Shown: positions 17,213 through 29,458 of the stretch, piece after piece | How positions within the stretch are numbered: the first letter of the stretch is position 1 | How the letters are laid out: each line of letters opens with the position of its first letter | NCBI GenBank assembly: GCA_964611835.1 | Contig: CAZTDW010000001.1 | Coordinates: 14,033 to 78,032 of the forward strand | Direction: 5' to 3' | DNA length: 64,000 bases | Source of the DNA: an uncultured Rikenellaceae bacterium | GTDB lineage: Bacteria > Bacteroidota > Bacteroidia > Bacteroidales > VadinHA17 | Notes under the pieces: model-generated | Databases searched by the model: none | Seen by the model: the letters and a program-made list of their open reading frames with translations, nothing else | Told to the model about the DNA's origin: nothing | Translations under genes and position numbers: made by a program

Positions 17213-18727
17213 TCAATTTGTGGTTTTGAGAGTATTATCCGTAACTTTTGTGCATGATACGAAGGATATTGCCTGCATGGCTGGATTCGATGGTGAAGAT
17301 GATACTGTCATATTATTAAGATTCATATTGTTAACCTTAAATGCCTTTATTGAGTGTGTATAATAACCGGCTTTAACTTCACACCAGCCTATATTTCCCT
17401 GGTTAAAATTTATGTTTTCAGCATTTTCGATGTAAACGACAGGCACCTCCGATTCATATATCTCTTTTCCCGGAACCAGATTGGGCCTGAGATCGAAATT
17501 GCCTCCGCTTTCCTTGTCAAGCCTGCTTTGCCGCAAAATGAATTCAAAGTTGCTGAAGAAAATATTTGAAAGCTTCGTCTCCTCAGATGCATACATCAAT
17601 ATTGCATTTTCTCCCCGGCAGGTAATATTGTCAAAGAAAATGTTCCTGATGTCCCCTATCCGGTTTCCGGCTACTCCGCGCATTGCAGAGATCTTTATGG
17701 GTTCGCCGTTACCCCACCAGTCGCCCGTATGAAGGCGGGTTTCGATCCTGATGTTGCTGAAATTCACATTGCTCACAGATCCCGAATCCCTTACTGTAAT
17801 GTTAATTCCGCAATTGGAATCGAAGATTGTGATATTGCTGAAATTGTAATTTGACATGTGATTCTGATCCCATCCTCCGATCCTTATGCCACTCGATCGC
17901 GACTGCAATATGCAGTTTGAAACATTTATATTCCGTGATGGCCTTAATATTCCCTTAAATCCGGGATCGCCAAAATGATGTGCATATCCTGCAAGCACAA
18001 CAGCATCGTCGCCAGTTGTTATTATGCAATCGGAAACGTTGACATTGCTGCTGGAAACAATATCCAGGCCGTCGTTATTGGGTATCATCAGGTTATTGTC
18101 GACAGAGATGCCTGTGACATCCACCCTGTCGCAGTGAACAATAAGTATTGTCCAATAGGGTGCGTCGACACACTCGAATCCCGACAGAAACACCTTCCTG
18201 CAGTTGCTGAATACAATCATCTGATGATATCTGTCTTTGGGCATGAGGGGACCATCGCCGAGTCCGTTTTCAACCTTCCTGAAGTCATATTTCTGGCGGA
18301 TGAATTTATTCACCTCCCCCCTGATGACTTTTGCACTGTCCTTATACATAAATTCAATCCCCTGTCCGCAGATCTTTCCCGGTCCGGTTATTGAGACATT
18401 CTCTGCGTCCTCAGTATAAAAAAGACCGGCAAGATGTTCCATATGTTTCTGATAATGCGAAAGATCAGTTGAGGCTTTAATTATCGAGCCCATTCCGAGA
18501 TGGAATTCTACGTTAGAACGAAGGTTAAGTGTTCCCGTGAGATATTCTCCCCGGGGTACGAAAACAGTGCCTCCTCCCTCTGTGTAACACCTGTCTATCG
18601 CATTCTGTATCATGACAGTGGTTATTTCCCTGCCATTGTTTTTTGCACCAAAATCCATGACATTGTAAACTTCAGCTTTTGAGGCAAAAGTCAGTCCTGA
18701 TAAAAAAAGGCATAGCAATATCCGCAT
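17213..18727 (-). CDS. GH28 polygalacturonase-family glycoside hydrolase (secreted)
   Basis: The 504-aa ORF has a signal peptide, NNDGLDI, TGDDAVVL and a RSSGIRIGG parallel beta-helix signature. Confidence 0.85.
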   Translation of the reverse strand: MRILLCLFLSGLTFASKAEVYNVMDFGAKNNGREITTVMIQNAIDRCYTEGGGTVFVPRGEYLTGTLNLRSNVEFHLGMGSIIKASTDLSHYQKHMEHLAGLFYTEDAENVSITGPGKICGQGIEFMYKDSAKVIRGEVNKFIRQKYDFRKVENGLGDGPLMPKDRYHQMIVFSNCRKVFLSGFECVDAPYWTILIVHCDRVDVTGISVDNNLMIPNNDGLDIVSSSNVNVSDCIITTGDDAVVLAGYAHHFGDPGFKGILRPSRNINVSNCILQSRSSGIRIGGWDQNHMSNYNFSNITIFDSNCGINITVRDSGSVSNVNFSNIRIETRLHTGDWWGNGEPIKISAMRGVAGNRIGDIRNIFFDNITCRGENAILMYASEETKLSNIFFSNFEFILRQSRLDKESGGNFDLRPNLVPGKEIYESEVPVVYIENAENINFNQGNIGWCEVKAGYYTHSIKAFKVNNMNLNNMTVSSSPSNPAMQAISFVSCTKVTDNTLKTTN

Positions 18728-18913: not shown

Positions 18914-20806
18914 ATGATGAAAAAGCTGCTACTGTTACTGGTTATTTTCCTGGTTTTTCCGGGTATTCATGCCCAGAAGCCGCCGTTCTACAAGAATTTC
19001 ACTGTTTCTGCTTACACGCGGGCCTACGAGGTAAGGGATATGGCTGACCTGAAAAAGCTTGAACAGAGCTGGGACCTGATAAGCCGGCAGGTCAAAATAG
19101 ACAAGATATATCTGGAGACACATCGCGATAAACTGGTTGTGGATGAGAAAACCCTCGAAGGTGCAATAAAGTTTTTCAGGTCGAAAGGCCTGAAGGTAGC
19201 TGGGGGAATAACGTATACAATTGACGAGAGCAATAATTTCGAGACGTATTGCTATTCTAATCCCGAACACCGCAAAATGGCCAGGGAAGTAGCTGAATAT
19301 ACAGCCAGGCATTTCGATGAGTTCATTCTCGACGACTTCTTTTTCACAAGCTGCAAATGTGATCTGTGCATCAAGGCAAAAGGGGACATGAGCTGGACCG
19401 ACTTCAGGCTTAAGCTTATGACCGAGGCTGCAAATGATCTGATCATTAAACCTGCAAAGGCAGTAAATCCCAAAGTAAAGATTGTGATTAAATATCCCAA
19501 CTGGTATGAGCATTTCCAGGGGTTGGGCTTTAATCTTGAAGACGAGCCCAAAATGTTCGATGGTATTTACACTGGTACGGAGACCCGCGATGCTGTAAGC
19601 AGCGATCAGCACCTGCAGCAATACCTCAGCTATCTGGCGGCAAGATATTTTGAAAACATTGCCCCTGGCCGAAACGGGGGCGGCTGGGTCGATTCGGGCG
19701 GAGCATTTTATCTCGACCGCTATGCAGAACAGTTCTGGATAACTCTTTTTGCAAAAGTCCCTGAAATAACAATGTTCGACTACAGGCAGCTTCAGTCACC
19801 GATCAGGTTCGGCCAGAGGGCACCCTGGCAGGGTAGCCAGACAAGCTTCGATTTTGATGCAATGATGAAACCCTACCAGTCGGCCGGAGGTGAGACCATT
19901 CATCCGACAACCATTGCAAGGGCAGCAGGTATGACATTTGAACAGGTTGATAAATTCCTTGGTGCACTCGGCAATCCTGTAGGATTAAAAAGCTATAAAC
20001 CGTATCATTCGACAGGAGAGGACTTTCTTCAGAATTATCTTGGAATGATAGGTATTCCAATGGATATTTCCCCTGTGTTCCCTGTCGATGGGAAGATGAT
20101 CCTGCTTACCGAATCGGCTGCATTTGATCCACTGATCGTGGAGAAGATCAAAAGTCGTCTTCAGGACGGCAGGAATGTAATGATAACTTCAGGATTGCTG
20201 AGGGCGCTTCAGGGAAAGGGGATTGAAGATATTGCCGAGATAACCTATACAGACAGAAAAGCCTTTGTAACCGACTTCAAGGCCGGATGGTTCAGAAACT
20301 GCAGTTCGGAACAGGAAATCCTTATACCGCAGATCAATTACCTGACAAATGATTCATGGGAAGAAGCCTCAGCAATAAAGGGAGCAACAGGCTGGCCAAT
20401 CCTGCATCGTGCACAATACTCAAAGGCTAACCTATATGTTCTGACCATACCCGATAATTTTTCAGATCTGTATCAGTATCCCGCCGACATTCTTAACAGG
20501 ATACGTGCTGTTGCTGCCCAGGACTTTAACATAAGGCTTGAAGGCCCTTCGCAGGTCAGTTTGTTCTGTTACGACAACGGGACATTTATTGTAGAGTCAT
20601 TTCGTCCCGACCCGATCACTGTAAAAATAATAGCTGAAAAGTCAGTGAGCACGCTGGAAGATCTGTTGTCAAAGGAGATTCTGAAAGGAACCGATGTGCC
20701 GCTTCCGCCATTCAGAAGAAACCAGGCTGTTCCCTTGCGTAGTTTTGAAATCACGGTCAAGCCACATTCATACAGGGTGTTCCGCTCACTGCAGGAAGGC
20801 AGGTAA
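18914..20806 (+). CDS. Hypothetical secreted protein (possibly glycoside-hydrolase-like)
   Basis: The 630-aa ORF starts with the signal peptide MMKKLLLLLVIFLVFPGIHAQ. I recognise no family motif. Confidence 0.6.
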   Translation: MMKKLLLLLVIFLVFPGIHAQKPPFYKNFTVSAYTRAYEVRDMADLKKLEQSWDLISRQVKIDKIYLETHRDKLVVDEKTLEGAIKFFRSKGLKVAGGITYTIDESNNFETYCYSNPEHRKMAREVAEYTARHFDEFILDDFFFTSCKCDLCIKAKGDMSWTDFRLKLMTEAANDLIIKPAKAVNPKVKIVIKYPNWYEHFQGLGFNLEDEPKMFDGIYTGTETRDAVSSDQHLQQYLSYLAARYFENIAPGRNGGGWVDSGGAFYLDRYAEQFWITLFAKVPEITMFDYRQLQSPIRFGQRAPWQGSQTSFDFDAMMKPYQSAGGETIHPTTIARAAGMTFEQVDKFLGALGNPVGLKSYKPYHSTGEDFLQNYLGMIGIPMDISPVFPVDGKMILLTESAAFDPLIVEKIKSRLQDGRNVMITSGLLRALQGKGIEDIAEITYTDRKAFVTDFKAGWFRNCSSEQEILIPQINYLTNDSWEEASAIKGATGWPILHRAQYSKANLYVLTIPDNFSDLYQYPADILNRIRAVAAQDFNIRLEGPSQVSLFCYDNGTFIVESFRPDPITVKIIAEKSVSTLEDLLSKEILKGTDVPLPPFRRNQAVPLRSFEITVKPHSYRVFRSLQEGR

Positions 20807-20826
20807 AGGGGGCAGCCGGATAAATA

Positions 20827-22905
20827 TCAGGGTGTAATAAGGATGACCCTGGTTCTTTCAGCGGGTATTGTAAGCCTGAAAGTTCCGGCTTTTATTTCAA
20901 CGGCATTTCCCCCGGTCATTTCACGGGCAGTATATTTGTCCGTTATTCCAAGTTTACCGGCATCAACCTTCACAGTGCACTCTGTATTGCTGGCAGAGTT
21001 GTTCCTTACGGTGAAAAATATCCTGTCACCCCTTCCGAAACGCTCTATCCTTATTCCGGCGGAACCTGATCTGGCCATTGTAACGGGTTCCCATCCTGCA
21101 GCTGAGATCTCTTTTATGAGAGGGATATATTTTTTAAAGAAAGGCCTTCCGTTTTCAATCTTACGCTTGTCCTGCCAGTAGGGATCATTTGAAGCATCGA
21201 CGCTGAAGAATGACGGGAAGAATCCGTAAGCCATCATTTTTTCAAAATAAACTTCGTAACCGTAGTATGGTGCTTCTGTAAAAGCCTTGTCATTCAGCCC
21301 TTCATTGAGAAGGAAAACAATAGGCTTGCGAAATGAAATGGCCCTTTTGAAATCAAGTGCGTCAACATCATGGTCATGGGATGAGTACCAGCTCAGTTCA
21401 GCGCCGAAAAGGTCGAGGTTGGATGCTGCGAAAGGATTCCATCCATGGCCATTGCCCATCGCCAGTTTTCCCTGAAGATGCATTTCGTCGGCAATCTTTT
21501 TCATGAATTCAAATTCCGAGCTGAAGTTCCATATTGCCGGTTTTCCAACTGATTCTGAAAAAGTCAGCGGGTAGTCTGTGTATGCAAAATGCTCCTCCCT
21601 GTAGTTCAGATCGTGATGCCAGTTCCATTCCATAGAATCGAAATATATCCCATCCACATTCATTTTACGTGCAGGATCGATCTCTTCTTTAAGAACGAAC
21701 TGATACCTGTTGAATCCTTGGATTTCAGGATCACAGTTGGTTGTTATGCTGGCAGCCCATCCGGTCCTGAACCATGGTGTATTAAGCCTTCTTGCCTGCC
21801 AGCGACCGTTTTTATCATGCGTTGCACTGGTCCTGAGATATTCCCTGTGCTTTGCAGGAACACTCTTATCCGACACCAGGGTATCATAGGCGATAGTCTT
21901 TGTCGATATGGGCAATTGTACATCCCATGGTTCGGTGTATTGAAAACTGAGTACGCCGGTCTCCCTGTCGGAGAGAATATTTGGTATTTTCTTCCCGTCT
22001 TTTATATCATTACTGCCCCAGGATGTCTCATGAAAAGCAATGCCAAAATCGCTCCATCCGGGGATTGACCTGAGCGGAGTGAACGGCAGCCATATTCCTT
22101 CGGTGATGACCCTCTTCCGGAATGCTTCTTCATAAATTGCATAATATTGTTCCAGTGCTTTCCTCATTCCCCATTCAGGTTCAAAATCAAACCTTACAAG
22201 CCTGAAGAAAGACCTGTCGGGGAATTTAACGGTAAGAGGACTTGTAGCGAGGTCAAATTCTGCAATAAGGCCTGCATCATTTTTTCCGGCCAGCCTGTAA
22301 ACAACAGGGACGGACATGTCAACGCCGATGCAGTAACCTTTCGCGTCTGAAGAGATCGCTGCCAGGGGATAGTACGACATTGATCCTTTTCCAACCGGAT
22401 CACCGTATCCACCCTGACGAAGGACTTCCGCATTAAAGGCTCCGTCGGGAGGAATCGCGGTTCGTATGCTTACAGTGTCGGTGTAAAGCATTCCGTCTTC
22501 CATCATTTCGGTTTTATCGAGGCCACGGTGCCATTTCCAGGTTATTGACTCAAGAGGAAAAATGATCCTCAGGGTTGCGCATGAGTTACCGGCCTTAAGA
22601 TGAATAAGCTCACCGTTGATTTCCGTATAGGCAGGTCTGTGAATCTCATGAATGACTGCCCTGTAAGTATCATTCATGTATGTGGAGATCCTGGTGCTGG
22701 CAGTAATTTTGGTTGAGGCAAGCGGCAGTTCGAAGACCTTTGTGGCGCCATTTTCCTGCTGTTCATATTCAACCGCTATTGAGGGAGCTTGTTTAAAAGA
22801 AGAAGGCCCGGAAGCAACTACGGTGTCGGATCCGGCCACAGGCAGAATAAAAAATGCCAGGTATGGCAATATGAGCCTGATGGAAATATTTCTTAATGAT
22901 TTCAT
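20827..22905 (-). CDS. Hypothetical secreted protein
   Basis: The 692-aa ORF has an N-terminal signal peptide. Its start lies 12 nt downstream of the Trx-TrxR stop on the same strand. I recognise no family. Confidence 0.6.
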   Translation of the reverse strand: MKSLRNISIRLILPYLAFFILPVAGSDTVVASGPSSFKQAPSIAVEYEQQENGATKVFELPLASTKITASTRISTYMNDTYRAVIHEIHRPAYTEINGELIHLKAGNSCATLRIIFPLESITWKWHRGLDKTEMMEDGMLYTDTVSIRTAIPPDGAFNAEVLRQGGYGDPVGKGSMSYYPLAAISSDAKGYCIGVDMSVPVVYRLAGKNDAGLIAEFDLATSPLTVKFPDRSFFRLVRFDFEPEWGMRKALEQYYAIYEEAFRKRVITEGIWLPFTPLRSIPGWSDFGIAFHETSWGSNDIKDGKKIPNILSDRETGVLSFQYTEPWDVQLPISTKTIAYDTLVSDKSVPAKHREYLRTSATHDKNGRWQARRLNTPWFRTGWAASITTNCDPEIQGFNRYQFVLKEEIDPARKMNVDGIYFDSMEWNWHHDLNYREEHFAYTDYPLTFSESVGKPAIWNFSSEFEFMKKIADEMHLQGKLAMGNGHGWNPFAASNLDLFGAELSWYSSHDHDVDALDFKRAISFRKPIVFLLNEGLNDKAFTEAPYYGYEVYFEKMMAYGFFPSFFSVDASNDPYWQDKRKIENGRPFFKKYIPLIKEISAAGWEPVTMARSGSAGIRIERFGRGDRIFFTVRNNSASNTECTVKVDAGKLGITDKYTAREMTGGNAVEIKAGTFRLTIPAERTRVILITP

Positions 22906-22917
22906 TATGATTATGCT

Positions 22918-24186
22918 TTAATCCAATTCCTTTGCAATCGACATGGCAGCTATGGTACCGTCGGCAACGGCCGTGGTTATCTGCCGGTATTTCTTGCTTA
23001 TGACATCACCTACCGCATAAACACCAGGAATACTTGTCCTCATATCTTCATCGGTCTTTATATAGCCCCATTGGTCGAGCGCAAGTTTATCCCTGAAAAG
23101 GCCTATGTTCGGTTTCATGCCTATGAAGATAAATACTCCGTCGCTAACAAGCCTGGAACGCTCGCCGGTTTTTAAATTTTCTGCTTCGGTTATTATTTTA
23201 TCTCCTTCCCTGGTAAAAGCCCTGGGCTCGGTGTTGAAGATAATGCTGATCTTCGGATTTCTAAACACCTTTTCCTGTGCCTGTTTGTTTGCAGTAAGCC
23301 TGTCAAACTGATGGACGATGGTAAGCTTGCCTGCAAACCGGGTTATATATTCAGATTCTTCCACAGCTGAATTGCCTCCGCCTATTACAAGCACCTCCTT
23401 ATCATTGAAATATTTGGCATCGCAAGTGGCGCAGTAGGAGATACCCCTGCCCTTAAGTTCTTTTTCTCCTGAAGCTCCTGTGAGGTTCGGCGTTGTTCCG
23501 GTGCCAATTATGATCCTCTTTGCTCTTATGGTCTCATATTCATCGATAACCACTTCCTTCTTCTCGAGGTCAACGCTTGTCACATCAACGGCCACCTTAT
23601 ATACTGTCCCGCACATTTTGGTCTGTTCGCTCATGTTGTGAGAAAGCATATATCCGGCCTGTGGTTCTATGAATCCGGGATAATTGGATACCTCATGCGT
23701 CGTTGCAACATGCCCTCCCGGCAATGCGACATCTATCAATACCGTGTTGATCTTAGCCTGGCAAAGGTATAGTCCGGCGGTCAATCCTCCTGGTCCGGCA
23801 CCAAGGATTATGACGTCAAATTCTGAGGTCGAAGGCCTGATTCCTGATTTGATCTCGCTTACCCAGTCTTCAGGCAGCATGCTGTTTAGATTGCGTATGA
23901 TTTCGCTTCTTTTTATTCCTCCGGTAAGTCTGGTGGCAACCTCTTTCCCGTTGTTGAAAAACATAAGTGTGGGTGAGGATTTTACTCCAAGCTTTTCAGC
24001 AAGATCGCGATTTTGCTGCCTGAATATTTTCATGAATTTAATGTCGTTGCCGTAAAGGCCGGCAAGATCCTCAAATTTTGATGCGAGCGCTTCGCAGGGA
24101 GGGCATTCTGTAGAATAGAAATCAAGGATGACCTTTCCTGACTGCAATACCTCTTTTTCGAATTCAGATGAATTGATCTCTTTCAT
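22918..24186 (-). CDS. Thioredoxin domain fused to a thioredoxin-reductase-like flavoprotein
   Basis: The 422-aa ORF has an N-terminal Trx fold with CPPC (residues 28-31). It is followed by an FAD site DVIILGAGPGGLTAG, the redox-active CATC and a GGGNSAVEE dinucleotide site. Confidence 0.85.
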   Translation of the reverse strand: MKEINSSEFEKEVLQSGKVILDFYSTECPPCEALASKFEDLAGLYGNDIKFMKIFRQQNRDLAEKLGVKSSPTLMFFNNGKEVATRLTGGIKRSEIIRNLNSMLPEDWVSEIKSGIRPSTSEFDVIILGAGPGGLTAGLYLCQAKINTVLIDVALPGGHVATTHEVSNYPGFIEPQAGYMLSHNMSEQTKMCGTVYKVAVDVTSVDLEKKEVVIDEYETIRAKRIIIGTGTTPNLTGASGEKELKGRGISYCATCDAKYFNDKEVLVIGGGNSAVEESEYITRFAGKLTIVHQFDRLTANKQAQEKVFRNPKISIIFNTEPRAFTREGDKIITEAENLKTGERSRLVSDGVFIFIGMKPNIGLFRDKLALDQWGYIKTDEDMRTSIPGVYAVGDVISKKYRQITTAVADGTIAAMSIAKELD

Positions 24187-24188
24187 GG

Positions 24189-25514
24189 TTAACTTTCAAA
24201 ATATGCTTTAAATCCTATTTCCATTAGTTCTTTTACCGGTCTGCAGTCGGAAGAACAGATTTTCCCGGTCCTGTTCTTTGCCACCGAGCCGCAGCCTCCG
24301 CCGCAGGCAAGTCCTGCATTGCATTCCCTGCATTCGGGGATGGAAAAGATATCACGTACCTGCCATTGTTCAACAGCTGATTGGTCAAGAGCAACATCGG
24401 GATAAAAAGTTCCCAGCGATTCATCCGACTTACCAACTGTCGCAGTGCAGGAATAGATCTTTCCAGTATAGTCGAAAGCCCATTCGGTCTTGCAGGCCGG
24501 ACACGAATCAAAGAGCGGTCCGGGAAGCTCACCGTTTTCTGCAAGATACCTGGAGACAGAATAGGCAGGCTTGTAAAACTCCCGGACGTGCGGGTGTTTT
24601 TCGATTAATTCCGATATGCTCTCATACAGGGAAAGCCTGTCGAAAAGCTTACCGGGCGACGACTGGCAGTGATGCAGTTCATAGTTTCTTCCTATCTGAG
24701 TCTTGAAAAGCGAATTCCGGGTCCAGCCTTTGTCAGTGGCAAACTGTGCAAGTTCAGGCAGGTTGCCTATGTTTTCCCTGTCAATGACCACTCTCAGATT
24801 GACATCAATACCGGCCTCAAGGCACGAATCGATCCCTTCCACGATCTTTTCAAAGGTACCGCCTCCGCCTTTCAGGAAACGGCGGCTGTCGTGTACAGGT
24901 CCGGTGCCATCAAGGGTCACCTGTACTTCCCTGATCCTGCCTTTCGAAAGTATGGGATTATACTCCCTGAGATGGTACCCGTTGGTTACGAAACAAAGCG
25001 CGAGACCGGCTTCATTGGCTTTTTCAATGATATAACTGATCTTTTGCTTCTGCAGGCTGCTGCCAAGCAATGGTTCTCCTCCGAAAATTGTGATATACTT
25101 GCGACGGGATCCGAATTCTTTTCTGATATAACTGAAAAAAGCATCGATCACTTCATCACCGGGATTGTTTCCAGCATTCTGGTATTGATCCTGGTAACAA
25201 TAGGAACATGCGAAATTGCAGCTGTAGTTGGTCACGAAGAAAAGCTGAATCTCATCATTTTCCCTTGAGTCGGTAAAATCGAGATATTTGTTGCGGTATT
25301 CCCGGGCTTCCAGCAATTCATCGGTCATGTATCCCTTTTCAGCGAGCTCAGCCACAAAATCAGGATCGGAAGGATCCTCTCCCCTTCGTATTGCTTCAAG
25401 CTTTATGGCATCACCGGAGTCGAGAATGTCGGCATTCCCGGAAAGAAGATTCACAATAAAATATTTCTCTGAATCCCGTATCCTGGAGAAAATATTGAAT
25501 CTGGAATATTTCAT
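24189..25514 (-). CDS. Radical SAM / SPASM-domain enzyme (peptide-maturase-like)
   Basis: The ORF-track entry is 24189..25592. I prefer the ATG at 25514 (MKYSRFNIF...). CNFACSYC is a CX3CX2C motif at residues 99-106. The C-terminal SPASM pattern is CKTEWAFDYTGKIYSC (CX9GX4C) followed by CRECNAGLACGGGC (CX2CX5CX3C) and a further Cys. Confidence 0.85.
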   Translation of the reverse strand: MKYSRFNIFSRIRDSEKYFIVNLLSGNADILDSGDAIKLEAIRRGEDPSDPDFVAELAEKGYMTDELLEAREYRNKYLDFTDSRENDEIQLFFVTNYSCNFACSYCYQDQYQNAGNNPGDEVIDAFFSYIRKEFGSRRKYITIFGGEPLLGSSLQKQKISYIIEKANEAGLALCFVTNGYHLREYNPILSKGRIREVQVTLDGTGPVHDSRRFLKGGGGTFEKIVEGIDSCLEAGIDVNLRVVIDRENIGNLPELAQFATDKGWTRNSLFKTQIGRNYELHHCQSSPGKLFDRLSLYESISELIEKHPHVREFYKPAYSVSRYLAENGELPGPLFDSCPACKTEWAFDYTGKIYSCTATVGKSDESLGTFYPDVALDQSAVEQWQVRDIFSIPECRECNAGLACGGGCGSVAKNRTGKICSSDCRPVKELMEIGFKAYFES

Positions 25515-25551
25515 GTTGACTGTATTGCCAGCCACCCTGGAATAAACATTT

Positions 25552-25650
25552 TCAGTCGTGGCAGCCGGCAACGGTTTTGGATATCTTTGCACAGCACTGG
25601 GCTATTTTTGCCTTGACGGCATTTACCCTGTTCTTAACGAGACTTTTCAT
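25552..25650 (-). CDS. Unannotated 32-codon ORF encoding a basic tri-cysteine peptide (candidate radical-SAM substrate/precursor)
   Basis: My codon-by-codon translation of the minus strand gives MKSLVKNRVNAVKAKIAQCCAKISKTVAGCHD followed by TGA. The ATG is 11 nt after the thioredoxin stop. The stop is 37 nt before the radical SAM ATG at 25514. It is below the ORF-track size cutoff. Confidence 0.5.
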   Translation of the reverse strand: MKSLVKNRVNAVKAKIAQCCAKISKTVAGCHD

Positions 25651-25661
25651 CTTTTTGATTG

Positions 25662-26120
25662 TTACTTGTTTAACAATATTTCATTTACTGCTTTCACCAG
25701 ATGCTCTTTTGGAAGTGCCCCCATTGCCACCTGAGGCTTACCTTCGGCCGGAATGAACAGCAAAGTAGGCAGCCCGGTGATGCCTAGGCTCTGTGAAAGG
25801 ATCTTTTCCTTTTCAGTGTCAACCTTATATACATCAATTTTTCCCGAATATTCCTTTGCAATCTCCTCGATCAGGGGCGACAGCTGCCTGCATGGCCCAC
25901 ACCAGTCGGCATAGAAATCGATCAGTGCAGGTTTTTTGCCTTCGAACTTCCACTCCTTATTGACATCGTAATTGAAGATCATCTTTTTGAAGCTCTCATT
26001 CGTCAGTTGAACAATAGTTCCATCGTTCCCTTTTGCCGGCGGGGTAGCGGGAGTTTCCGCAGTGCATTCGGCAAATATCAAAGGAAGCATAATTATGGTA
26101 AAGAAAAAAAACTTTTTCAT
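25662..26120 (-). CDS. Secreted/lipoprotein thioredoxin (WCGPC)
   Basis: The 152-aa ORF has a signal peptide ending in FAEC, then FYADWCGPCRQL and GLPTLLF Trx-fold motifs. Confidence 0.85.
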   Translation of the reverse strand: MKKFFFFTIIMLPLIFAECTAETPATPPAKGNDGTIVQLTNESFKKMIFNYDVNKEWKFEGKKPALIDFYADWCGPCRQLSPLIEEIAKEYSGKIDVYKVDTEKEKILSQSLGITGLPTLLFIPAEGKPQVAMGALPKEHLVKAVNEILLNK

Positions 26121-26138
26121 CTTGTCATTATTAATTAA

Positions 26139-26798
26139 TTATTGAACATTATTTCCACAGCAGCTTTTGCCGGCTTGTTTGCGACCCGCAACGGTCCAGC
26201 TCGATATCATTGCTTTCCCTTTTTCATAGGGGGATGATTCTTCAAGAATACTGACCGAATTAAATCCGGCTTTCCTGAGTTGATAAAGGTATTCATCGCG
26301 TGTCACTGAGCCAGCCCAGCATTCAGAGACCGCGACAGGATCATTCCTGTATTCTTCGGGTATGGGATTTACTGAATAAATGTCACTTACAACAAAACGC
26401 CCACCGTGCTTTAAAATACGATAAATCTCGTTCCATACGGCCTGCTTGTCGGGAGAATGATTTATTGTACAGTTTGAAATCACCAGGTCGGCCGTATCAT
26501 CGGCAAGAGTTATCTTCTCGAGCTTGCTGAATATGAACTCAAAATTCTTTATACCTAGCTTTTCAGCAGTAATTCTGGCTTTACGTATCATCCCTTCAGA
26601 GATATCTATCCCGTAAACAAATCCCTTTTCGCCGACTGTTTCAGCCAGCCTTATGGCATCGGTACCGCGTCCGCTTCCAAGATCAACACATATCTCGCCC
26701 TCCGACACTTCAGAATAGTTGATTGCTCCCCCGCATGAGAGGCAGCATTCCGATTCAGCAAGTGCTGAGTACCTTTTGTCAATTTCAGAATAATCCAT
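26139..26798 (-). CDS. Class I SAM-dependent methyltransferase, arsenite methyltransferase (ArsM)-like
   Basis: The 219-aa ORF has an N-terminal CCLSCGG, the SAM motif VDLGSGRGTD, and ISNCTINHSPDK, KHGGRFVVSD and ECWAGS. These resemble the conserved Cys-containing ArsM blocks as I recall them. Confidence 0.6.
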   Translation of the reverse strand: MDYSEIDKRYSALAESECCLSCGGAINYSEVSEGEICVDLGSGRGTDAIRLAETVGEKGFVYGIDISEGMIRKARITAEKLGIKNFEFIFSKLEKITLADDTADLVISNCTINHSPDKQAVWNEIYRILKHGGRFVVSDIYSVNPIPEEYRNDPVAVSECWAGSVTRDEYLYQLRKAGFNSVSILEESSPYEKGKAMISSWTVAGRKQAGKSCCGNNVQ

Positions 26799-27094
26799 TT
26801 GTATAAAAACTAATTCTTTTTAGCCGCAGCCTTCAGATCACGCATCATACATTGCCGGCTGAGGCTGCAATCCCGGCGTTATGGCCATTAACCAGGGCAC
26901 AAATATAGATAAAAAGTATTAAATCGCAATAGTATCACTTAAATCTTTTTAATATCACTATTTTTTCTATTTTTGTGGTCTGTATTGTTTTGATCCGTCA
27001 GGCTGTCCGGATAGCAGAACGTTGGCGGACATGAATGTAAAATATTCCGGGTCCTGAAATCCCGGTACCCCGCTGTCTTAGTCGCAAGGATGTT

Positions 27095-27559
27095 GTGGAC
27101 AGGCTCCGGGGTTCATGCCACATGATTATGGGAGTGATTTTCAAAAAGGAACTTACTGAGGACCGGCTTGCCGGGCTTTTCAACAGTGATGAAAAATGCC
27201 TGGAGTTTCTGGCTGAGGTGAAATGGGAGAACGGATATACGTGCCGTAAATGCGGCAATGACAATTACTGCCAGGGCAGGACACCCTATTCCCGCAGGTG
27301 CACCAGGTGCAAAACAGAGGAATCGGCAGCGGCAGGCACAATTTTTCATAATTGCAAATTCCCTATTCATAAGGCATTTTATATAGCTTACAATGTATGC
27401 AAGGGAAAAGCAGAGCTGTCGTCGTATGAGCTGGCCCGCAGGCTTTCGCTCAGGCAGATGACATGCTGGAAATTCAGGACCAGGATCCATAAAGCGATTA
27501 ATCAGATGGAGGTTCTTACGGAAAGTGAAAAGGCTTCTCTGGAGAATATAATGCAGTAA
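27095..27559 (+). CDS. IS1595-type transposase N-terminal zinc-ribbon protein with no DDE domain (remnant or domesticated)
   Basis: The 154-aa ORF's likely true start is the ATG at 27122. CLEFLAEVKWENGYTCRKCGN...RRCTRCK matches the Zn_Tnp_IS1595 pattern. No catalytic domain and no flanking inverted repeats were seen. Confidence 0.55.
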   Translation: MDRLRGSCHMIMGVIFKKELTEDRLAGLFNSDEKCLEFLAEVKWENGYTCRKCGNDNYCQGRTPYSRRCTRCKTEESAAAGTIFHNCKFPIHKAFYIAYNVCKGKAELSSYELARRLSLRQMTCWKFRTRIHKAINQMEVLTESEKASLENIMQ

Positions 27560-27631
27560 TTTGTGGTTGACTCATTTCAAGGCGGACAGGATATTAAAAC
27601 ATAATTCTGATCAAATTATGCAGGATGCCAG

Positions 27632-29158
27632 TCAGCCGCTGATAAAGAGGCTTTTGCTTGAATATTCAGGATCGCAGGTAAGGTTCACCTTGAGTTTTCT
27701 CCAGCCGGCTTCGTCGCCCGGGGTAGGGATGTGTGTCAGATGTACCTCACAGTCGCGGAGCCATTTGAGGTTTTCAACCGCCATTTTTGCCGCCGGATTT
27801 GACAATGCGCTTATTCCAAGGACTATAAGTGTCTCATCAACATCGAGGCTTACCATTTTGCCATTCAGGATATCTTTCTTGAGATGTGTTACGGAGTCGA
27901 TAATATTTTCAGGCAGAAGATACATTTTATCGGGTAACCCTGAAAGATGTTTCGTTGCATTCAGGATGAGGCTGGATGAGGCGTTCATCAGTGTCGAATT
28001 CTTACCTGTAATGATTGTCCCGTCAGGAAGCTCGATAGCTGCTCCGCTGAAGATCCCTGCATTGCCCTTGCCGCATTTCTGGGCATCCTTTGCCGCTTTT
28101 CTGGCAGGCACCACTACTTTCCTGTCTTCAACTTTGGCTCCGGTGGTTTGCATTATCGACGTGATCCTTTTCATGGTATCGCTGTCGACAAGCCCCAATG
28201 CATATTCAACCGTACACCTGAAGTATCTTCTTATTATTTCCTGGTAAGATGCTTCCCTTATTATGCTGTCGTCAATTATTCCTGCACTGGCCCGGTTCAC
28301 TCCCATATCTGTCGGGGAAAGGTACATCGACTCGCCGCCTGTTATCTTTTCAATGATCCTTTTAAGCAGATGAAATGCTTCAATATCACGGTTATAATTT
28401 ACTGTTTTTATATTATAGGCCTTAAGGTGATATTCGTCTATCAGAACCCTGTCCTGCAGGTCAACGGTTGCCGCTTCATATGCAAGATTAACCATGTGAT
28501 CGACCGGCAGATCCCATATGGGAAATGTCTCAAATTTGGCATATCCGGCCTTGAACCCGTTTTTATATTCGTGATAGAGGTTAGACAGGCATGTGGCCAG
28601 TTTCCCGCTGCCCGGGCCCGGACCTGTTACGATAACGATTGGATTGGTGGTATGAATGTATTCATTTGCCCCGTATCCCTGATCGCTTACTATAAGATCA
28701 ACATCAGTCGGGTATCCTTTAGTGGGGTAATGAAGGTAGACCTTAATGCCTCTCATCTCAAGCTTGTTCCTGAAGGCTTTGGCGGGAGGCTGACCCTGAT
28801 AGCGTGTGATCACCACGGCAGTGATGTCTATGTCCCACTCCCTGAAATCATCAATGGTTTTAAGGGCGTCAACATCATAGGTGATGCCAAAGTCGGCCCT
28901 TACCTTTTGTCTTTCAATGGCTCCTGCATGAATGCAGAGTATAACATCAATCTTGTCCTTCAGCATCTGAAGCAGACGCATCTTCACATTTGGATCAAAT
29001 CCCGGAAGTACACGGGAGGCATGGTAATCATACAGTATCTTCCCTCCGAATTCAAGATATAGTTTATGATTGAACCGGTTTACTCTTTCAAGGATCGCAG
29101 AGGTCTGCTCCTCAAGATACCTTTCGTTGTCAAATCCTGTGCGTTTTGAAAATCCCAT
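27632..29158 (-). CDS. DUF1846 (UPF0371) family protein
   Basis: The ORF-track entry is 27632..29221. The internal ATG at 29158 gives MGFSKRTGFDNERYLEEQTSAILERV...KLYLEFGGKILYDYHASRVLPGFDPN, the conserved UPF0371 N-terminus. Confidence 0.75.
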   Translation of the reverse strand: MGFSKRTGFDNERYLEEQTSAILERVNRFNHKLYLEFGGKILYDYHASRVLPGFDPNVKMRLLQMLKDKIDVILCIHAGAIERQKVRADFGITYDVDALKTIDDFREWDIDITAVVITRYQGQPPAKAFRNKLEMRGIKVYLHYPTKGYPTDVDLIVSDQGYGANEYIHTTNPIVIVTGPGPGSGKLATCLSNLYHEYKNGFKAGYAKFETFPIWDLPVDHMVNLAYEAATVDLQDRVLIDEYHLKAYNIKTVNYNRDIEAFHLLKRIIEKITGGESMYLSPTDMGVNRASAGIIDDSIIREASYQEIIRRYFRCTVEYALGLVDSDTMKRITSIMQTTGAKVEDRKVVVPARKAAKDAQKCGKGNAGIFSGAAIELPDGTIITGKNSTLMNASSSLILNATKHLSGLPDKMYLLPENIIDSVTHLKKDILNGKMVSLDVDETLIVLGISALSNPAAKMAVENLKWLRDCEVHLTHIPTPGDEAGWRKLKVNLTCDPEYSSKSLFISG

Positions 29159-29458
29159 TTCGTTGCCCCGGAGGTACTGTTTGAATAAATTAATGACCTT
29201 CAATATTAGGAAAATTTTCATTTCACGATATTTCTAGATGGATAATAAAAAAAAATTGCGATGTGTAAACAGATCTCCGCAGAGGTTCGTGCAGATCTTT
29301 TTCAGGTGATATTTACATTATGCATTTCATGCTTTTTTGGATAATAAAGTTTATGTAGTTTTGATAGGATTGTTGATACTCCCTGTTTGACGGCAGTTAT
29401 TACGGATCAGATTGCTGAGTGATTTGCCTGACCGCGCGGGAGAAATAATTTTATCATT

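Follow-up and report, generated by a model that had tools for sequence, protein, structure and literature searches.

Which biological system is encoded by six tightly packed genes of an uncultured Rikenellaceae bacterium that unite an ArsM-type methyltransferase, thioredoxins and a radical S-adenosylmethionine (SAM) enzyme? The locus lies in a stretch of 64,000 nucleotides (nt) on contig CAZTDW010000001.1 (positions 14,033 to 78,032), which is called the window here and to which all coordinates refer unless they follow a locus handle. Six open reading frames (ORFs) on the minus strand at 20827-26798, separated by intergenic gaps of 18, 11, 37, 2 and 12 nt, encode in the order of transcription the methyltransferase, a thioredoxin (Trx), a peptide of 32 amino acids (aa), a radical SAM/SPASM enzyme, a fusion of Trx with thioredoxin reductase (TrxR) and a 692-aa protein with a signal peptide. 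The original prediction, made by a model from the letters and an ORF list alone, had described ORFs, coordinates and gaps exactly as the ORF listing gives them. It had proposed a single transcription unit that represents a locus for a peptide made by the ribosome and modified after translation (RiPP), an arsenic- or metalloid-linked system, or both. Our comparative analysis corroborates this unit for five genes, based on synteny, gene fusions and a shared operator, but not for the gene of the 692-aa protein. These five ORFs belong to one conserved system, which also comprises a divergent Zn-ribbon gene at 27095-27559 (+) and the operator at 26933-26958. The same three lines of evidence firmly document one co-regulated and co-inherited module with the methyltransferase and the Trx-TrxR fusion as obligate partners, and its core (peptide, radical SAM enzyme, methyltransferase and Trx-TrxR) is conserved nearly unchanged in anaerobes of at least four phyla.

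The individual parts are of known kinds, and the family assignments of the original prediction hold for the ArsM-like methyltransferase, the thioredoxin with its signal-like N-terminal segment, the radical SAM enzyme and the Trx-TrxR fusion. The obligate combination of these parts and the conserved peptide are not described in the searched literature. Full-text searches for the gene combination, for RiPP together with arsenite methyltransferase and radical SAM, for the domain DUF5714 (see below) and for the peptide motifs retrieved no description of the module, and a survey of Bacteroidales RiPP clusters mentions no thioredoxin-linked cluster. The NCBI names of the proteins are “radical SAM protein”, “methyltransferase domain-containing protein” and “DUF5714 domain-containing protein”.

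A conserved micro-ORF upstream of the radical SAM gene

The micro-ORF at 25552..25650 (-) encodes the precursor-like peptide MKSLVKNRVNAVKAKIAQCCAKISKTVAGCHD with Cys19, Cys20 and Cys30, which starts with a leader MKSLVKN... and carries the core AQCCAKISKTVAGCHD directly before the stop codon. It is present in a single copy in the 64-kb window, and the peptide has no match to any NCBIfam or Pfam family. When one genome of each GTDB species was scanned, 557 relatives of the radical SAM enzyme were retrieved, and the best 80, all from Bacteroidales-type metagenome-assembled genomes (MAGs) and 63-89% identical, were chosen for the analysis of their loci. A tblastn search located the 32-aa peptide directly upstream of the radical SAM gene in nearly all of them. 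Altogether, 79 copies were collected, every one of which starts with ATG and ends with GCHD-stop, and their lengths of 31, 32 or 38 aa result from a variable middle segment. In its layout, a conserved N-terminal leader (MKS[LV][IV]KK) is followed by a linker that varies in length and, at the C-terminus, by an invariant core (AQCC[AS]K-x-S-x4-GCH[D/N]-stop), in which eleven residues never vary, namely, A, C, C, A, K, S, G, C, H, D and the first A. The same core was found in peptides of 30-37 aa from divergent Bacteroidales-type metagenome loci, whose radical SAM enzymes are 52-57% identical to that of the window.

The DNA of these copies is far more diverse than their protein. Over the last 16 codons the 79 copies comprise 77 distinct sequences, whose differences in the core are nearly all located at third codon positions, and the summed entropy of codon positions 1, 2 and 3 amounts to 2.07, 4.94 and 20.56, respectively. 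Synonymous change is saturated and the protein is fixed, which indicates that selection acts on the translated product. Judged by this codon-position pattern, the micro-ORF is a real, translated gene under purifying selection at the protein level, as the original prediction had supposed. It had also listed the micro-ORF as unannotated, and the NCBI record bears this out, since the consecutive accessions of the methyltransferase, radical SAM and 692-aa genes leave none for the peptide. Public gene calls start the radical SAM gene at GTG 25592 (P0001, 467 aa), and this overlap with the 3' end of the peptide gene is the probable cause of the missing annotation of the latter. The homologues of the enzyme comprise 439-444 aa, and their alignment begins at M1; its start is therefore ATG 25514, and the micro-ORF is not overlapped. 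A further suggestion, that the three cysteines resemble the As(III) site of ArsD, was not substantiated: the vicinal pair is alike, but the spacing of Cys19/20/30 differs from Cys12/13/18 of ArsD, and the peptide shows no homology and no family match to ArsD.

The simplest alternative is a chance adjacency of unrelated housekeeping genes with a fortuitous small ORF between them. It would agree with the missing NCBI annotation and with gene callers that extend the radical SAM gene over the 3' end of the micro-ORF. However, the coding selection at the level of codon positions, the synteny in at least four phyla, the gene fusions and the shared operator reported below refute it and leave it virtually no probability.

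As a separate observation, the block of peptide, radical SAM and Trx-TrxR genes is tandemly duplicated in one Bacteroidales MAG contig (L003 1-6800).

The radical SAM/SPASM enzyme and its relationship to RiPP maturases

The radical SAM enzyme (24189..25514, -; 441 aa from ATG 25514) matches PF04055 of Pfam with 72 bits (cutoff 29.5). The motifs quoted by the original prediction do not vary among 45 aligned homologues, including C341-x9-G351-x4-C356 and C395-x2-C398-x5-C404-x3-C408. The cysteines of the CX3CX2C motif (C99/C103/C106) are moreover invariant in an alignment of 57 diverse sequences, and so are C338, C356, C395, C398, C404, C408 and C424, with C341 being invariant within the family. 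Hence, the enzyme carries eight conserved SPASM cysteines, which matches the seven to eight expected for two auxiliary [4Fe-4S] clusters.

The enzyme reaches no curated NCBIfam cutoff. The best scores were obtained with CefB (NF038107, 150.4 vs. 600 bits) and TIGR04463 (147.7 vs. 525), both maturases of Cys-rich peptides, followed by PapB (NF047865, 107 vs. 340) and the SCIFF maturase (TIGR03974, 83.3 vs. 425). CefB and TIGR04463 align over the full length of the enzyme including its N-terminal domain, but the scores are far below the cutoffs, the substrate peptides are others, and the proteins of the sister clade described below also fail every cutoff. The best and only substantial sequence match in the PDB is CteB (E 7.5e-13). 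A first AlphaFold2 model from a shallow alignment was poor (predicted local distance difference test, pLDDT, 61) and superseded by a model based on the 57 diverse sequences (pLDDT 92.8, predicted template modeling score 0.89). It comprises an N-terminal beta-beta-beta-alpha-alpha-alpha domain (residues 1-84, pLDDT 91-97), the radical SAM barrel and the SPASM domain. Foldseek ranked CteB first (TM-score 0.65-0.67 over 455-476 columns), followed by SuiB, anSME and ChlB. The fold aligns over its full length to CteB and SuiB, both of which bear a RiPP recognition element (RRE), and that of the SPASM domain also to anSME. On structural grounds, the modeled N-terminal domain is a putative RRE.

One of the closest known systems is SCIFF, the thioether (ranthipeptide) system of Clostridia (CteA-CteB; 5WGG, 5WHY). 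CteB carries an RRE, a radical SAM domain and a SPASM domain with two auxiliary clusters, and the enzyme of the window shows the same succession with its putative RRE. Both enzymes have a gene for a short, highly conserved Cys-rich peptide beside them, and neither system has an obligatory exporter. However, the two enzymes are 17-18% identical, the score of the SCIFF model stays far below its cutoff, and the peptides are unrelated, with three cysteines and an AQCC...GCH[D/N] core in the present case. SCIFF loci, furthermore, lack an obligatory ArsM-like methyltransferase or Trx-TrxR. The original prediction had likened the enzyme to thioether-forming RiPP maturases and not to sulfatase maturases, and this view is strengthened by CteB as the nearest structure. 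The enzyme falls into none of the characterised non-peptide families. An anaerobic sulfatase maturase was rejected because the score is too low (TIGR03942, 64.1 vs. 349 bits) and because CCAK[TI] in the core of the peptide does not provide the Arg that the C/S-x-P/A-x-R motif requires. A GG-Bacteroidales peptide system was likewise dismissed, because neither the peptide nor the enzyme gave a family match. The peptide is the evident partner of the radical SAM/SPASM enzyme with its putative RRE. It looks more like a conserved intracellular peptide or cofactor precursor, such as SCIFF, PqqA or MftA, than like a variable antimicrobial. The RiPP reading of the original prediction is retained with respect to a peptide and its enzyme with the putative RRE, but in the sense of a classical natural product it applies only in part, given the near-invariant core and the lack of a conserved protease or exporter.

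Conservation of the module in Bacteroidales

The ORFs of the 80 loci were clustered and their order was drawn, and genes were counted where the flanks sufficed. The genes usually follow the order [DUF302>] [Zn-ribbon<] [DUF6132-like>] MT> [Trx>] peptide> rSAM> [DUF1847 or Trx>] Trx-TrxR>, with MT for the methyltransferase, rSAM for the radical SAM enzyme and optional genes in brackets. The methyltransferase is present in 75 of 76 Bacteroidales loci, the peptide in 74 of 76, and the Trx-TrxR fusion is adjacent in 74 of 75 and placed elsewhere within the locus in one more. Each core part is accordingly found in 97-99% of the loci from about 75 Bacteroidales genomes, which greatly exceeds what chance would produce. 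The original prediction would have been abandoned if homologous enzymes had no adjacent small Cys-containing ORF; the counts for the peptide, including ten of ten loci from other lineages, speak for its retention. Accessory genes are less regular, i.e., the divergent Zn-ribbon gene occurs in 50, a DUF6132-like membrane protein in 47, DUF302 in 40 and DUF1847 in seven of 71 Bacteroidales loci. The window itself lacks the DUF6132-like gene. A metagenome scan retrieved, apart from the Bacteroidales family, unrelated radical SAM/SPASM RiPP enzymes with 25-33% identity that are accompanied by neither the methyltransferase nor TrxR nor the peptide, which shows that the module is specific to a sub-clade. 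In about 90 loci, the module is not accompanied by any conserved protease or exporter.

The recurrent outer neighbours in Bacteroidales comprise OsmC, peroxiredoxin, ferritin-like, Fur/PerR-like, NifX-like and DUF134 genes as well as Crp. They bring up the possibility that the peptide gives rise to a redox cofactor or, in anaerobes without glutathione, to a thiol buffer. The radical SAM enzyme would convert it into a redox-active species, analogous to PqqA/PqqE or MftA/MftC, which Trx-TrxR would cycle against oxidative or thiol stress, and the methyltransferase would modify the cofactor. The extreme conservation of the single-copy precursor, the missing export genes and the dedicated reductase that is always present are in agreement with this explanation, and so are the neighbours related to oxidative stress and the NifX-like, DUF134 and C_GCAxxG_C_C genes near the module in Bacteroidales and Acetivibrio. 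But these neighbours vary between loci, a cofactor-dependent dehydrogenase is not conserved with the module, and the cysteine site of the ArsM type and the arsenic context of a distant clade would be left unexplained. We regard the redox cofactor as unlikely.

The latter neighbours deserve a note of their own. C_GCAxxG_C_C, NifX/ParA (NifX-like corresponds to Nitro_FeMo-Co) and DUF134 genes are found near the Acetivibrio copy of the module (L161 11353-13449), and NifX-like, DUF134 and C_GCAxxG_C_C genes recur in Bacteroidales downstream of TrxR. This recurrence suggests a wider association of uncharacterised Cys-rich redox genes in anaerobes.

The module in other phyla and its fusion relatives

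An exhaustive search of representatives clustered at 50% identity retrieved relatives of the radical SAM enzyme at about 40% identity as well as fusion proteins. P0151 and P0152 represent fusions of radical SAM/SPASM with DUF5714, a domain that shares homology with the “metal-binding double selenoprotein MbdU” and for which no informative solved relative was found. A profile search revealed that fusions with DUF5714 make up a large sister clade with members in Ruminiclostridium, Acetivibrio cellulolyticus, Oscillospiraceae, Carboxydocellales, Acidobacteriota and Ca. Humimicrobiaceae (Actinomycetota). Furthermore, P0195 is a fusion of radical SAM/SPASM with ArsM that scores 222 bits against NF008823, and P0411 and P0432 are radical SAM-ArsM fusions, too.

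We examined ten loci outside Bacteroidales, which originate from Clostridia, Acidobacteriota, Actinomycetota and untyped contigs. All ten encode a methyltransferase of the same type (205-236 aa), the radical SAM enzyme and a Trx-TrxR fusion of 425-450 aa, with DUF5714 being fused to the radical SAM enzyme, adjacent or absent. All of them also contain a small ORF between the module genes that encodes the same core, as exemplified by MKKVTKKETAATCCTNFVTAQCCSKSSKVVAGCHN, MKPLNNKNVKVETAAKAVGQCCAKSSKVVSGCHD and MKAITKKIKIKKITMLKIAQCCAKNSKIVSGCHD. Most of these peptides carry an extra CC upstream, and the consensus across phyla is AQCC[AS]K-x-S-K-x-[VIL]-x-GCH[D/N]-stop. Among the accessory genes are those of small membrane proteins, either DUF6132 or a relative of it, with the motif G-[TA]-C-P. 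Split pairs of PF03773 permeases (ArsP family) are present in two of the ten loci (L165, L166) and CsoR-family repressors in three (L162, L163, L167), one with the copper-type signature H-x3-C and two with Y-x3-C.

The latter genes point to another possible role, namely, a buffer for soft metals (Cu) or persulfides, in which the cysteines would be converted to metal-binding groups, e.g., thiooxazoles, as an oxygen-independent counterpart of bufferins and methanobactins. In addition to the adjacent CsoR/RicR-family repressors, the weak similarity of the PF03773 permeases to the SO_0444 family of Cu/Zn efflux and the homology of DUF5714 to a “metal-binding” selenoprotein would fit. A precedent also exists, because radical SAM/SPASM enzymes can make thiooxazoles according to PMC13188914, which cites Lewis et al. 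2021 for it. However, the methyltransferase would be left without a role, CsoR-family genes are absent from the Bacteroidales loci, and the similarities to metal-related families are all below family cutoffs. The metal buffer appears decidedly unlikely.

Two types of small proteins were observed in passing. A protein of 47-49 aa with CxxxC and GCxxC motifs (MFT..L.EKE..LLKKSI.HCL.TC..G....GC.DC.A...VL..LP) follows Trx-TrxR in six of the ten loci (L161 11094-11240; L162 9458-9607; L164 9787-9930; L167 10524-10670; L169 8958-9104; L170 11265-11408). It is absent from Bacteroidales and has no family match and no NCBIfam model. Small proteins with two transmembrane segments, either DUF6132-like or 76-81 aa long, recur beside the module in different phyla. 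They share the motif G-[TA]-C-[PA]-[LIV]-T at the membrane boundary (L165 5898-6143; L166 5802-5966 and 10444-10674; in Bacteroidales, e.g., L011 6689-6931) and are reminiscent of small Cys-dependent transporters of the MerF/MerE type.

A shared candidate operator between two divergent promoters

The intergenic region between the Zn-ribbon gene and the operon was aligned for 46 loci. It contains a block with more than 80% conservation (consensus AGTGATAttAAAAAGATTtAgGTGATAcTATTGCGATTTA) between two divergent -7 boxes of the Bacteroidetes type. The box TATATTTG at 26900..26907 (-), which is embedded in a conserved “ttTATcTTTGca” block, is assigned to the operon promoter and the mirror box TATTTTTG at 26968-26975 (+) to the promoter of the Zn-ribbon gene. 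The number of TAnnTTTG motifs across the window does not exceed chance, and both assignments are therefore based on position and conservation only; a scan for sigma-70 promoters and terminators did not exceed the shuffled expectation either. The highly conserved block between both promoters harbors the operator-like direct repeat GTGATA-N14-GTGATA (26933..26958, -), which has no other match in the 64-kb window. In 57 Bacteroidales-type loci this repeat is found exactly once per locus, and its position is upstream of the operon in each of them. Additional copies are located before the TrxR gene in the one locus where this gene is displaced (L012 12960-12985) and before a displaced Trx gene (L043 1227-1252). 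They provide independent evidence that methyltransferase, Trx, peptide, radical SAM enzyme and TrxR form one regulon, and GTGATA-N14-GTGATA is hence a candidate operator that defines a small regulon in Bacteroidales.

The divergent gene encodes a Zn-ribbon protein (27128..27559, +), whose start was deduced from its homologues, as the ORF is open from GTG 27095. Proteins of this type are 144-154 aa long and consist of an IS1595-type transposase Zn-ribbon domain (PF12760, E 3.9e-8) without the catalytic domain of the transposase. The protein may represent a domesticated DNA-binding domain and would be the regulator that binds the operator. Riboswitches or other RNA families of Rfam were not detected, neither in the whole window at gathering thresholds nor at 20500-27700 with E<=1. 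An imperfect hairpin GCAGCCTCAG...CTGAAGGCTGC is located in the 5' leader of the methyltransferase gene (26838-26880, -); Rfam gave no match for it, and the alignment of 46 loci shows no conservation of it.

The methyltransferase and the thioredoxin parts

The methyltransferase (26139..26798, -; 219 aa) has a Methyltransf_31 domain (Pfam) and its best NCBIfam match to ArsM (NF008823, profile positions 56-257 of 272), although its score of 194.5 bits stays below the cutoff of 263. The same is true for NF040538 (105 vs. 500) and NF038099 (70 vs. 400). In a phmmer search of the PDB, ArsM/AS3MT structures were retrieved first (5EVJ, 8XT7, 4FS8; E 1e-27 to 1e-21). The alignment places Cys22, Cys110 and Cys160 at the “GCG”, “SNC” and “EC” cysteines of ArsM/AS3MT chains, which we take to be C72, C174 and C224 of CmArsM, and Cys18 just upstream would correspond to C44. 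All four cysteines are conserved to 97-99% in 78 orthologues from all lineages sampled, and the ArsM-like Cys blocks reported by the original prediction are thus borne out. The enzyme accordingly shares with ArsM/AS3MT the Rossmann methyltransferase fold, the three cysteines of the As(III) site and the upstream Cys. It differs in its size (219 vs. about 270-380 aa) and in the absence of both the C-terminal domain and the segment between the N-terminal CC and GCG. About 55 N-terminal profile positions of ordinary ArsM are missing, and the CC and GCG motifs are joined as ECC-LS-CGG. Moreover, its locus is not an ars operon. The protein is a minimal ArsM-type enzyme (mini-ArsM) with the full cysteine set that ranks below the family cutoff.

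The thioredoxin with a CGPC motif (25662..26120, -; 152 aa) scores 98.1 bits against TIGR01068 and hence above the cutoff of 96.8. A hydrophobic, signal- or lipoprotein-like segment at its N-terminus is followed by a Cys; the putative signal peptide was read by eye. A Trx with signal peptide is present in 49 of 76 Bacteroidales loci, either before the peptide or after the radical SAM gene, and absent from the ten loci of other lineages, i.e., it is an accessory part that is specific to Bacteroidales.

The Trx-TrxR fusion (22918..24186, -; 422 aa) combines a Thioredoxin domain (CPPC) with a Pyr_redox_2 domain (CATC) according to Pfam, and its translation contains GAGPGG, GGGNSAVEE and CATC. Its score against TIGR01292 of 306.7 bits is just below the cutoff of 343.45. 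The architecture is reminiscent of AhpF-type fusions, which carry an N-terminal domain with thioredoxin fold on a low-molecular-weight TrxR. However, its Trx domain (CPPC) is present only once, the cutoffs for AhpF, AhpF homologues and TrxR are not reached, and its client is not AhpC. A fusion of this kind implies a dedicated path from NAD(P)H via FAD and two CxxC motifs to one client. Trx/TrxR is the physiological reductant in the cycle of ArsM/AS3MT.

A distant clade with arsenic genes

The radical SAM-ArsM fusions and their unfused relatives constitute a clade of enzymes that are 25-30% identical to that of the window. Two loci were examined. In the first (L171 5583-10760), genes of a PiT-type transporter, a second methyltransferase and a thioredoxin-type ArsC (142.6 bits) lie downstream of the fusion gene, and that of a MIP channel lies upstream. 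In the second (L172 1-9962), a radical SAM gene and the gene of an ArsM-like methyltransferase of 362 aa are located beside AioA (1262 vs. 359 bits) and AioB (183 vs. 96). Small ORFs upstream of both radical SAM genes share the motif E[QS]CCNY[DE]I (...VESCCNYDI... and ...IEQCCNYEI...), and the clade may constitute an independent peptide system related to arsenic. A flavoprotein with weak similarity to ArsO was also noticed among the neighbours of this clade, together with the AioA/AioB genes. Another related locus of actinobacterial type with high GC content (L101 58-7074) contains, besides an OPT-like transporter gene, a 47-aa ORF with the end ...DCCTAM...DGCE-stop, which precedes the genes of the radical SAM/SPASM enzyme, an ArsM-like methyltransferase with a Cys-rich N-terminal extension and a TldD/PmbA pair. 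The association of a vicinal-Cys peptide with a radical SAM/SPASM enzyme and an ArsM-type methyltransferase is therefore a recurring theme, and a distant branch of it is placed among arsenic genes.

In the biosynthesis of arsinothricin (ArsL) and arsenosugars (ArsS), a radical SAM enzyme makes a C-As bond and ArsM then methylates the arsenic. Both enzymes act on small molecules, and neither ArsL nor ArsS is known to possess an RRE, a SPASM domain or a peptide substrate. The common feature of the ArsL/ArsM and ArsS/ArsM pairs and the present module is a radical SAM enzyme that is encoded together with an ArsM-type methyltransferase, as it has been reported for arsQML (PMC8552651).

The locus L101 also speaks for an ordinary tailored RiPP, in which the radical SAM enzyme would introduce a ranthipeptide-like cross-link and the methyltransferase would methylate the peptide (S, N or O) without any metalloid. 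Trx-TrxR would then only keep the cysteines reduced or deliver electrons, and the product would serve in signalling or in another physiological role, as SCIFF does. Methyltransferases are common tailoring enzymes of RiPPs, and TldD/PmbA are proteases that process RiPP leaders, which are paired here with a CC-peptide, the radical SAM enzyme and an ArsM-like methyltransferase. The domain architecture and the nearest structure of the enzyme from the window match RiPP maturases as well, and its peptide shows the succession of leader, linker and core. On the other hand, a peptide methyltransferase has no obvious need of a four-cysteine ArsM site conserved to 97-99%, and a fused NAD(P)H-disulfide reductase is no known RiPP accessory. 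Typical tailored RiPPs also differ in that their core is not near-invariant across phyla, and no protease or exporter accompanies the module in the loci analysed. In our opinion, this explanation is somewhat unlikely.

Proposed function of the module

Our preferred reading, which we put forward tentatively and rate at less than an even chance, is that an intracellular, Cys-rich peptide, cross-linked by the radical SAM enzyme, is the thiol partner of a metalloid-methylating mini-ArsM, whose disulfides and those of the peptide are reset by Trx-TrxR. The first steps of this scenario derive from computation, as do the domain, motif and synteny facts. One promoter with the GTGATA-N14-GTGATA operator would drive the genes of the methyltransferase, the Trx (where present), the peptide, the radical SAM enzyme and Trx-TrxR, and the N-terminus MKS[LV][IV]KK of the translated peptide would be bound by the RRE-like N-terminal domain of the enzyme. 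The chemistry, the substrate of the methyltransferase and the client of Trx-TrxR are steps that we infer. The enzyme would modify the invariant core by 5'-deoxyadenosyl radical chemistry with the aid of its two auxiliary clusters. The most likely product would be at least one Cys-derived thioether cross-link, as made by CteB, PapB and QhpD, for example from Cys30 to the C-terminal Asp/Asn, leaving the remaining thiols and the His free. The matured peptide would stay in the cell as a Cys-rich carrier or cofactor of the mini-ArsM, whose site of four cysteines would take up a soft centre bound by thiols and methylate it; a trivalent metalloid, for instance As(III), is the most likely candidate. 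Trx-TrxR would re-reduce the disulfides of methyltransferase and peptide with NAD(P)H in the same way as Trx/TrxR does for ArsM/AS3MT. In Bacteroidales, the Trx with signal peptide and the small Cys-containing DUF6132-like membrane protein may link the module to the envelope.

The intracellular role as carrier or cofactor is favoured by a core that hardly varies across phyla, by a gene present in one copy, by the lack of a conserved protease or exporter and by the dedicated reductase. The metalloid element is favoured by the intact ArsM cysteine site, by the known dependence of ArsM on Trx, and by the fusions and the arsenic-linked sister clade; the ArsP-family permeases and the CsoR-family repressors in some loci outside Bacteroidales are further hints. 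The second reading of the original prediction, a metalloid-linked system, thus gains indirectly from the radical SAM-ArsM fusions, from a distant sister clade next to AioAB or ArsC and from the ArsP-family permeases in two of ten loci, but the absence of arsR, acr3 and arsC from about 90 loci tells against it.

Several further findings weigh against a peptide-assisted methylation of metalloids. Neither arsR nor acr3, arsB or arsC is among the recurrent neighbours in the 80 Bacteroidales loci, none of the four was found in the ten loci from other lineages, and the window contains no homologue of ArsC, PF03773 or CsoR. The recurrent outer genes in Bacteroidales are related to redox and oxidative stress and not to metal resistance. 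The methyltransferase scores below the ArsM cutoff and is devoid of the C-terminal domain, and the arsenic-linked clade is distant (25-30% identity) and represented by two loci only. With regard to the peptide, the N-terminal domain of the radical SAM enzyme has no match to PqqD of Pfam even at E<=10, and the thioether chemistry is derived solely from the nearest structure with its 17-18% identity. Finally, no ArsM is known that needs a peptide modified by a radical SAM enzyme.

A more far-reaching version of the metalloid scenario would make the product the first ribosomal peptide or cofactor that bears a metalloid, or a thiol carrier of peptide nature that hands As(III) over to ArsM; we consider it very improbable. 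The vicinal cysteines and Cys30 would hold As(III) or a similar element, a carbon radical of the peptide would form a C-As (or C-S-As) linkage comparable to the reaction of ArsL, the mini-ArsM would methylate the bound arsenic, and Trx-TrxR would perform the reductive steps. In a less radical form, the matured peptide would be a surrogate of glutathione that presents As(III) to ArsM in anaerobes without glutathione.

In that case, many “arsM” counts in anoxic metagenomes would belong to a peptide-dependent system. If our preferred reading is right, a very widespread four-gene module of strict anaerobes would have been overlooked, partly because its gene of 30-38 aa is not annotated. The maturation of peptides by radical SAM enzymes would then be linked to metalloid methylation of the ArsM type and to the thioredoxin cycle, i.e., to fields that have hitherto been apart. 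The module would also provide a testable handle on the question why most anaerobes with “arsM” differ from aerobes and on the purpose of deeply conserved SCIFF-like peptides. Experiments are feasible with Acetivibrio cellulolyticus, which is a cultured carrier.

Neighbouring genes outside the module

The gene of the 692-aa protein with signal peptide (20827..22905, -), which the original prediction had included as a secreted component, is syntenic in L001 and L002 only, the two nearest relatives, and hence not part of the system. In both of them it is accompanied by the gene of a 630-aa protein (+) and a GH28 gene. Neither the 692-aa protein nor the 630-aa protein with signal peptide (18914-20806, +) has a match to a Pfam or NCBIfam family. 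Their genes are convergent in the window and located beside a GH28-like gene at 17213-18727. On the other side of the operon, the gene of a DUF1846 protein (529 aa, 27632-29221, -) adjoins the Zn-ribbon gene; its synteny is confined to the closest relative, and it is placed outside the module. The 630-aa and 692-aa proteins, which are kept together in the nearest relatives only, may be novel carbohydrate-active proteins.

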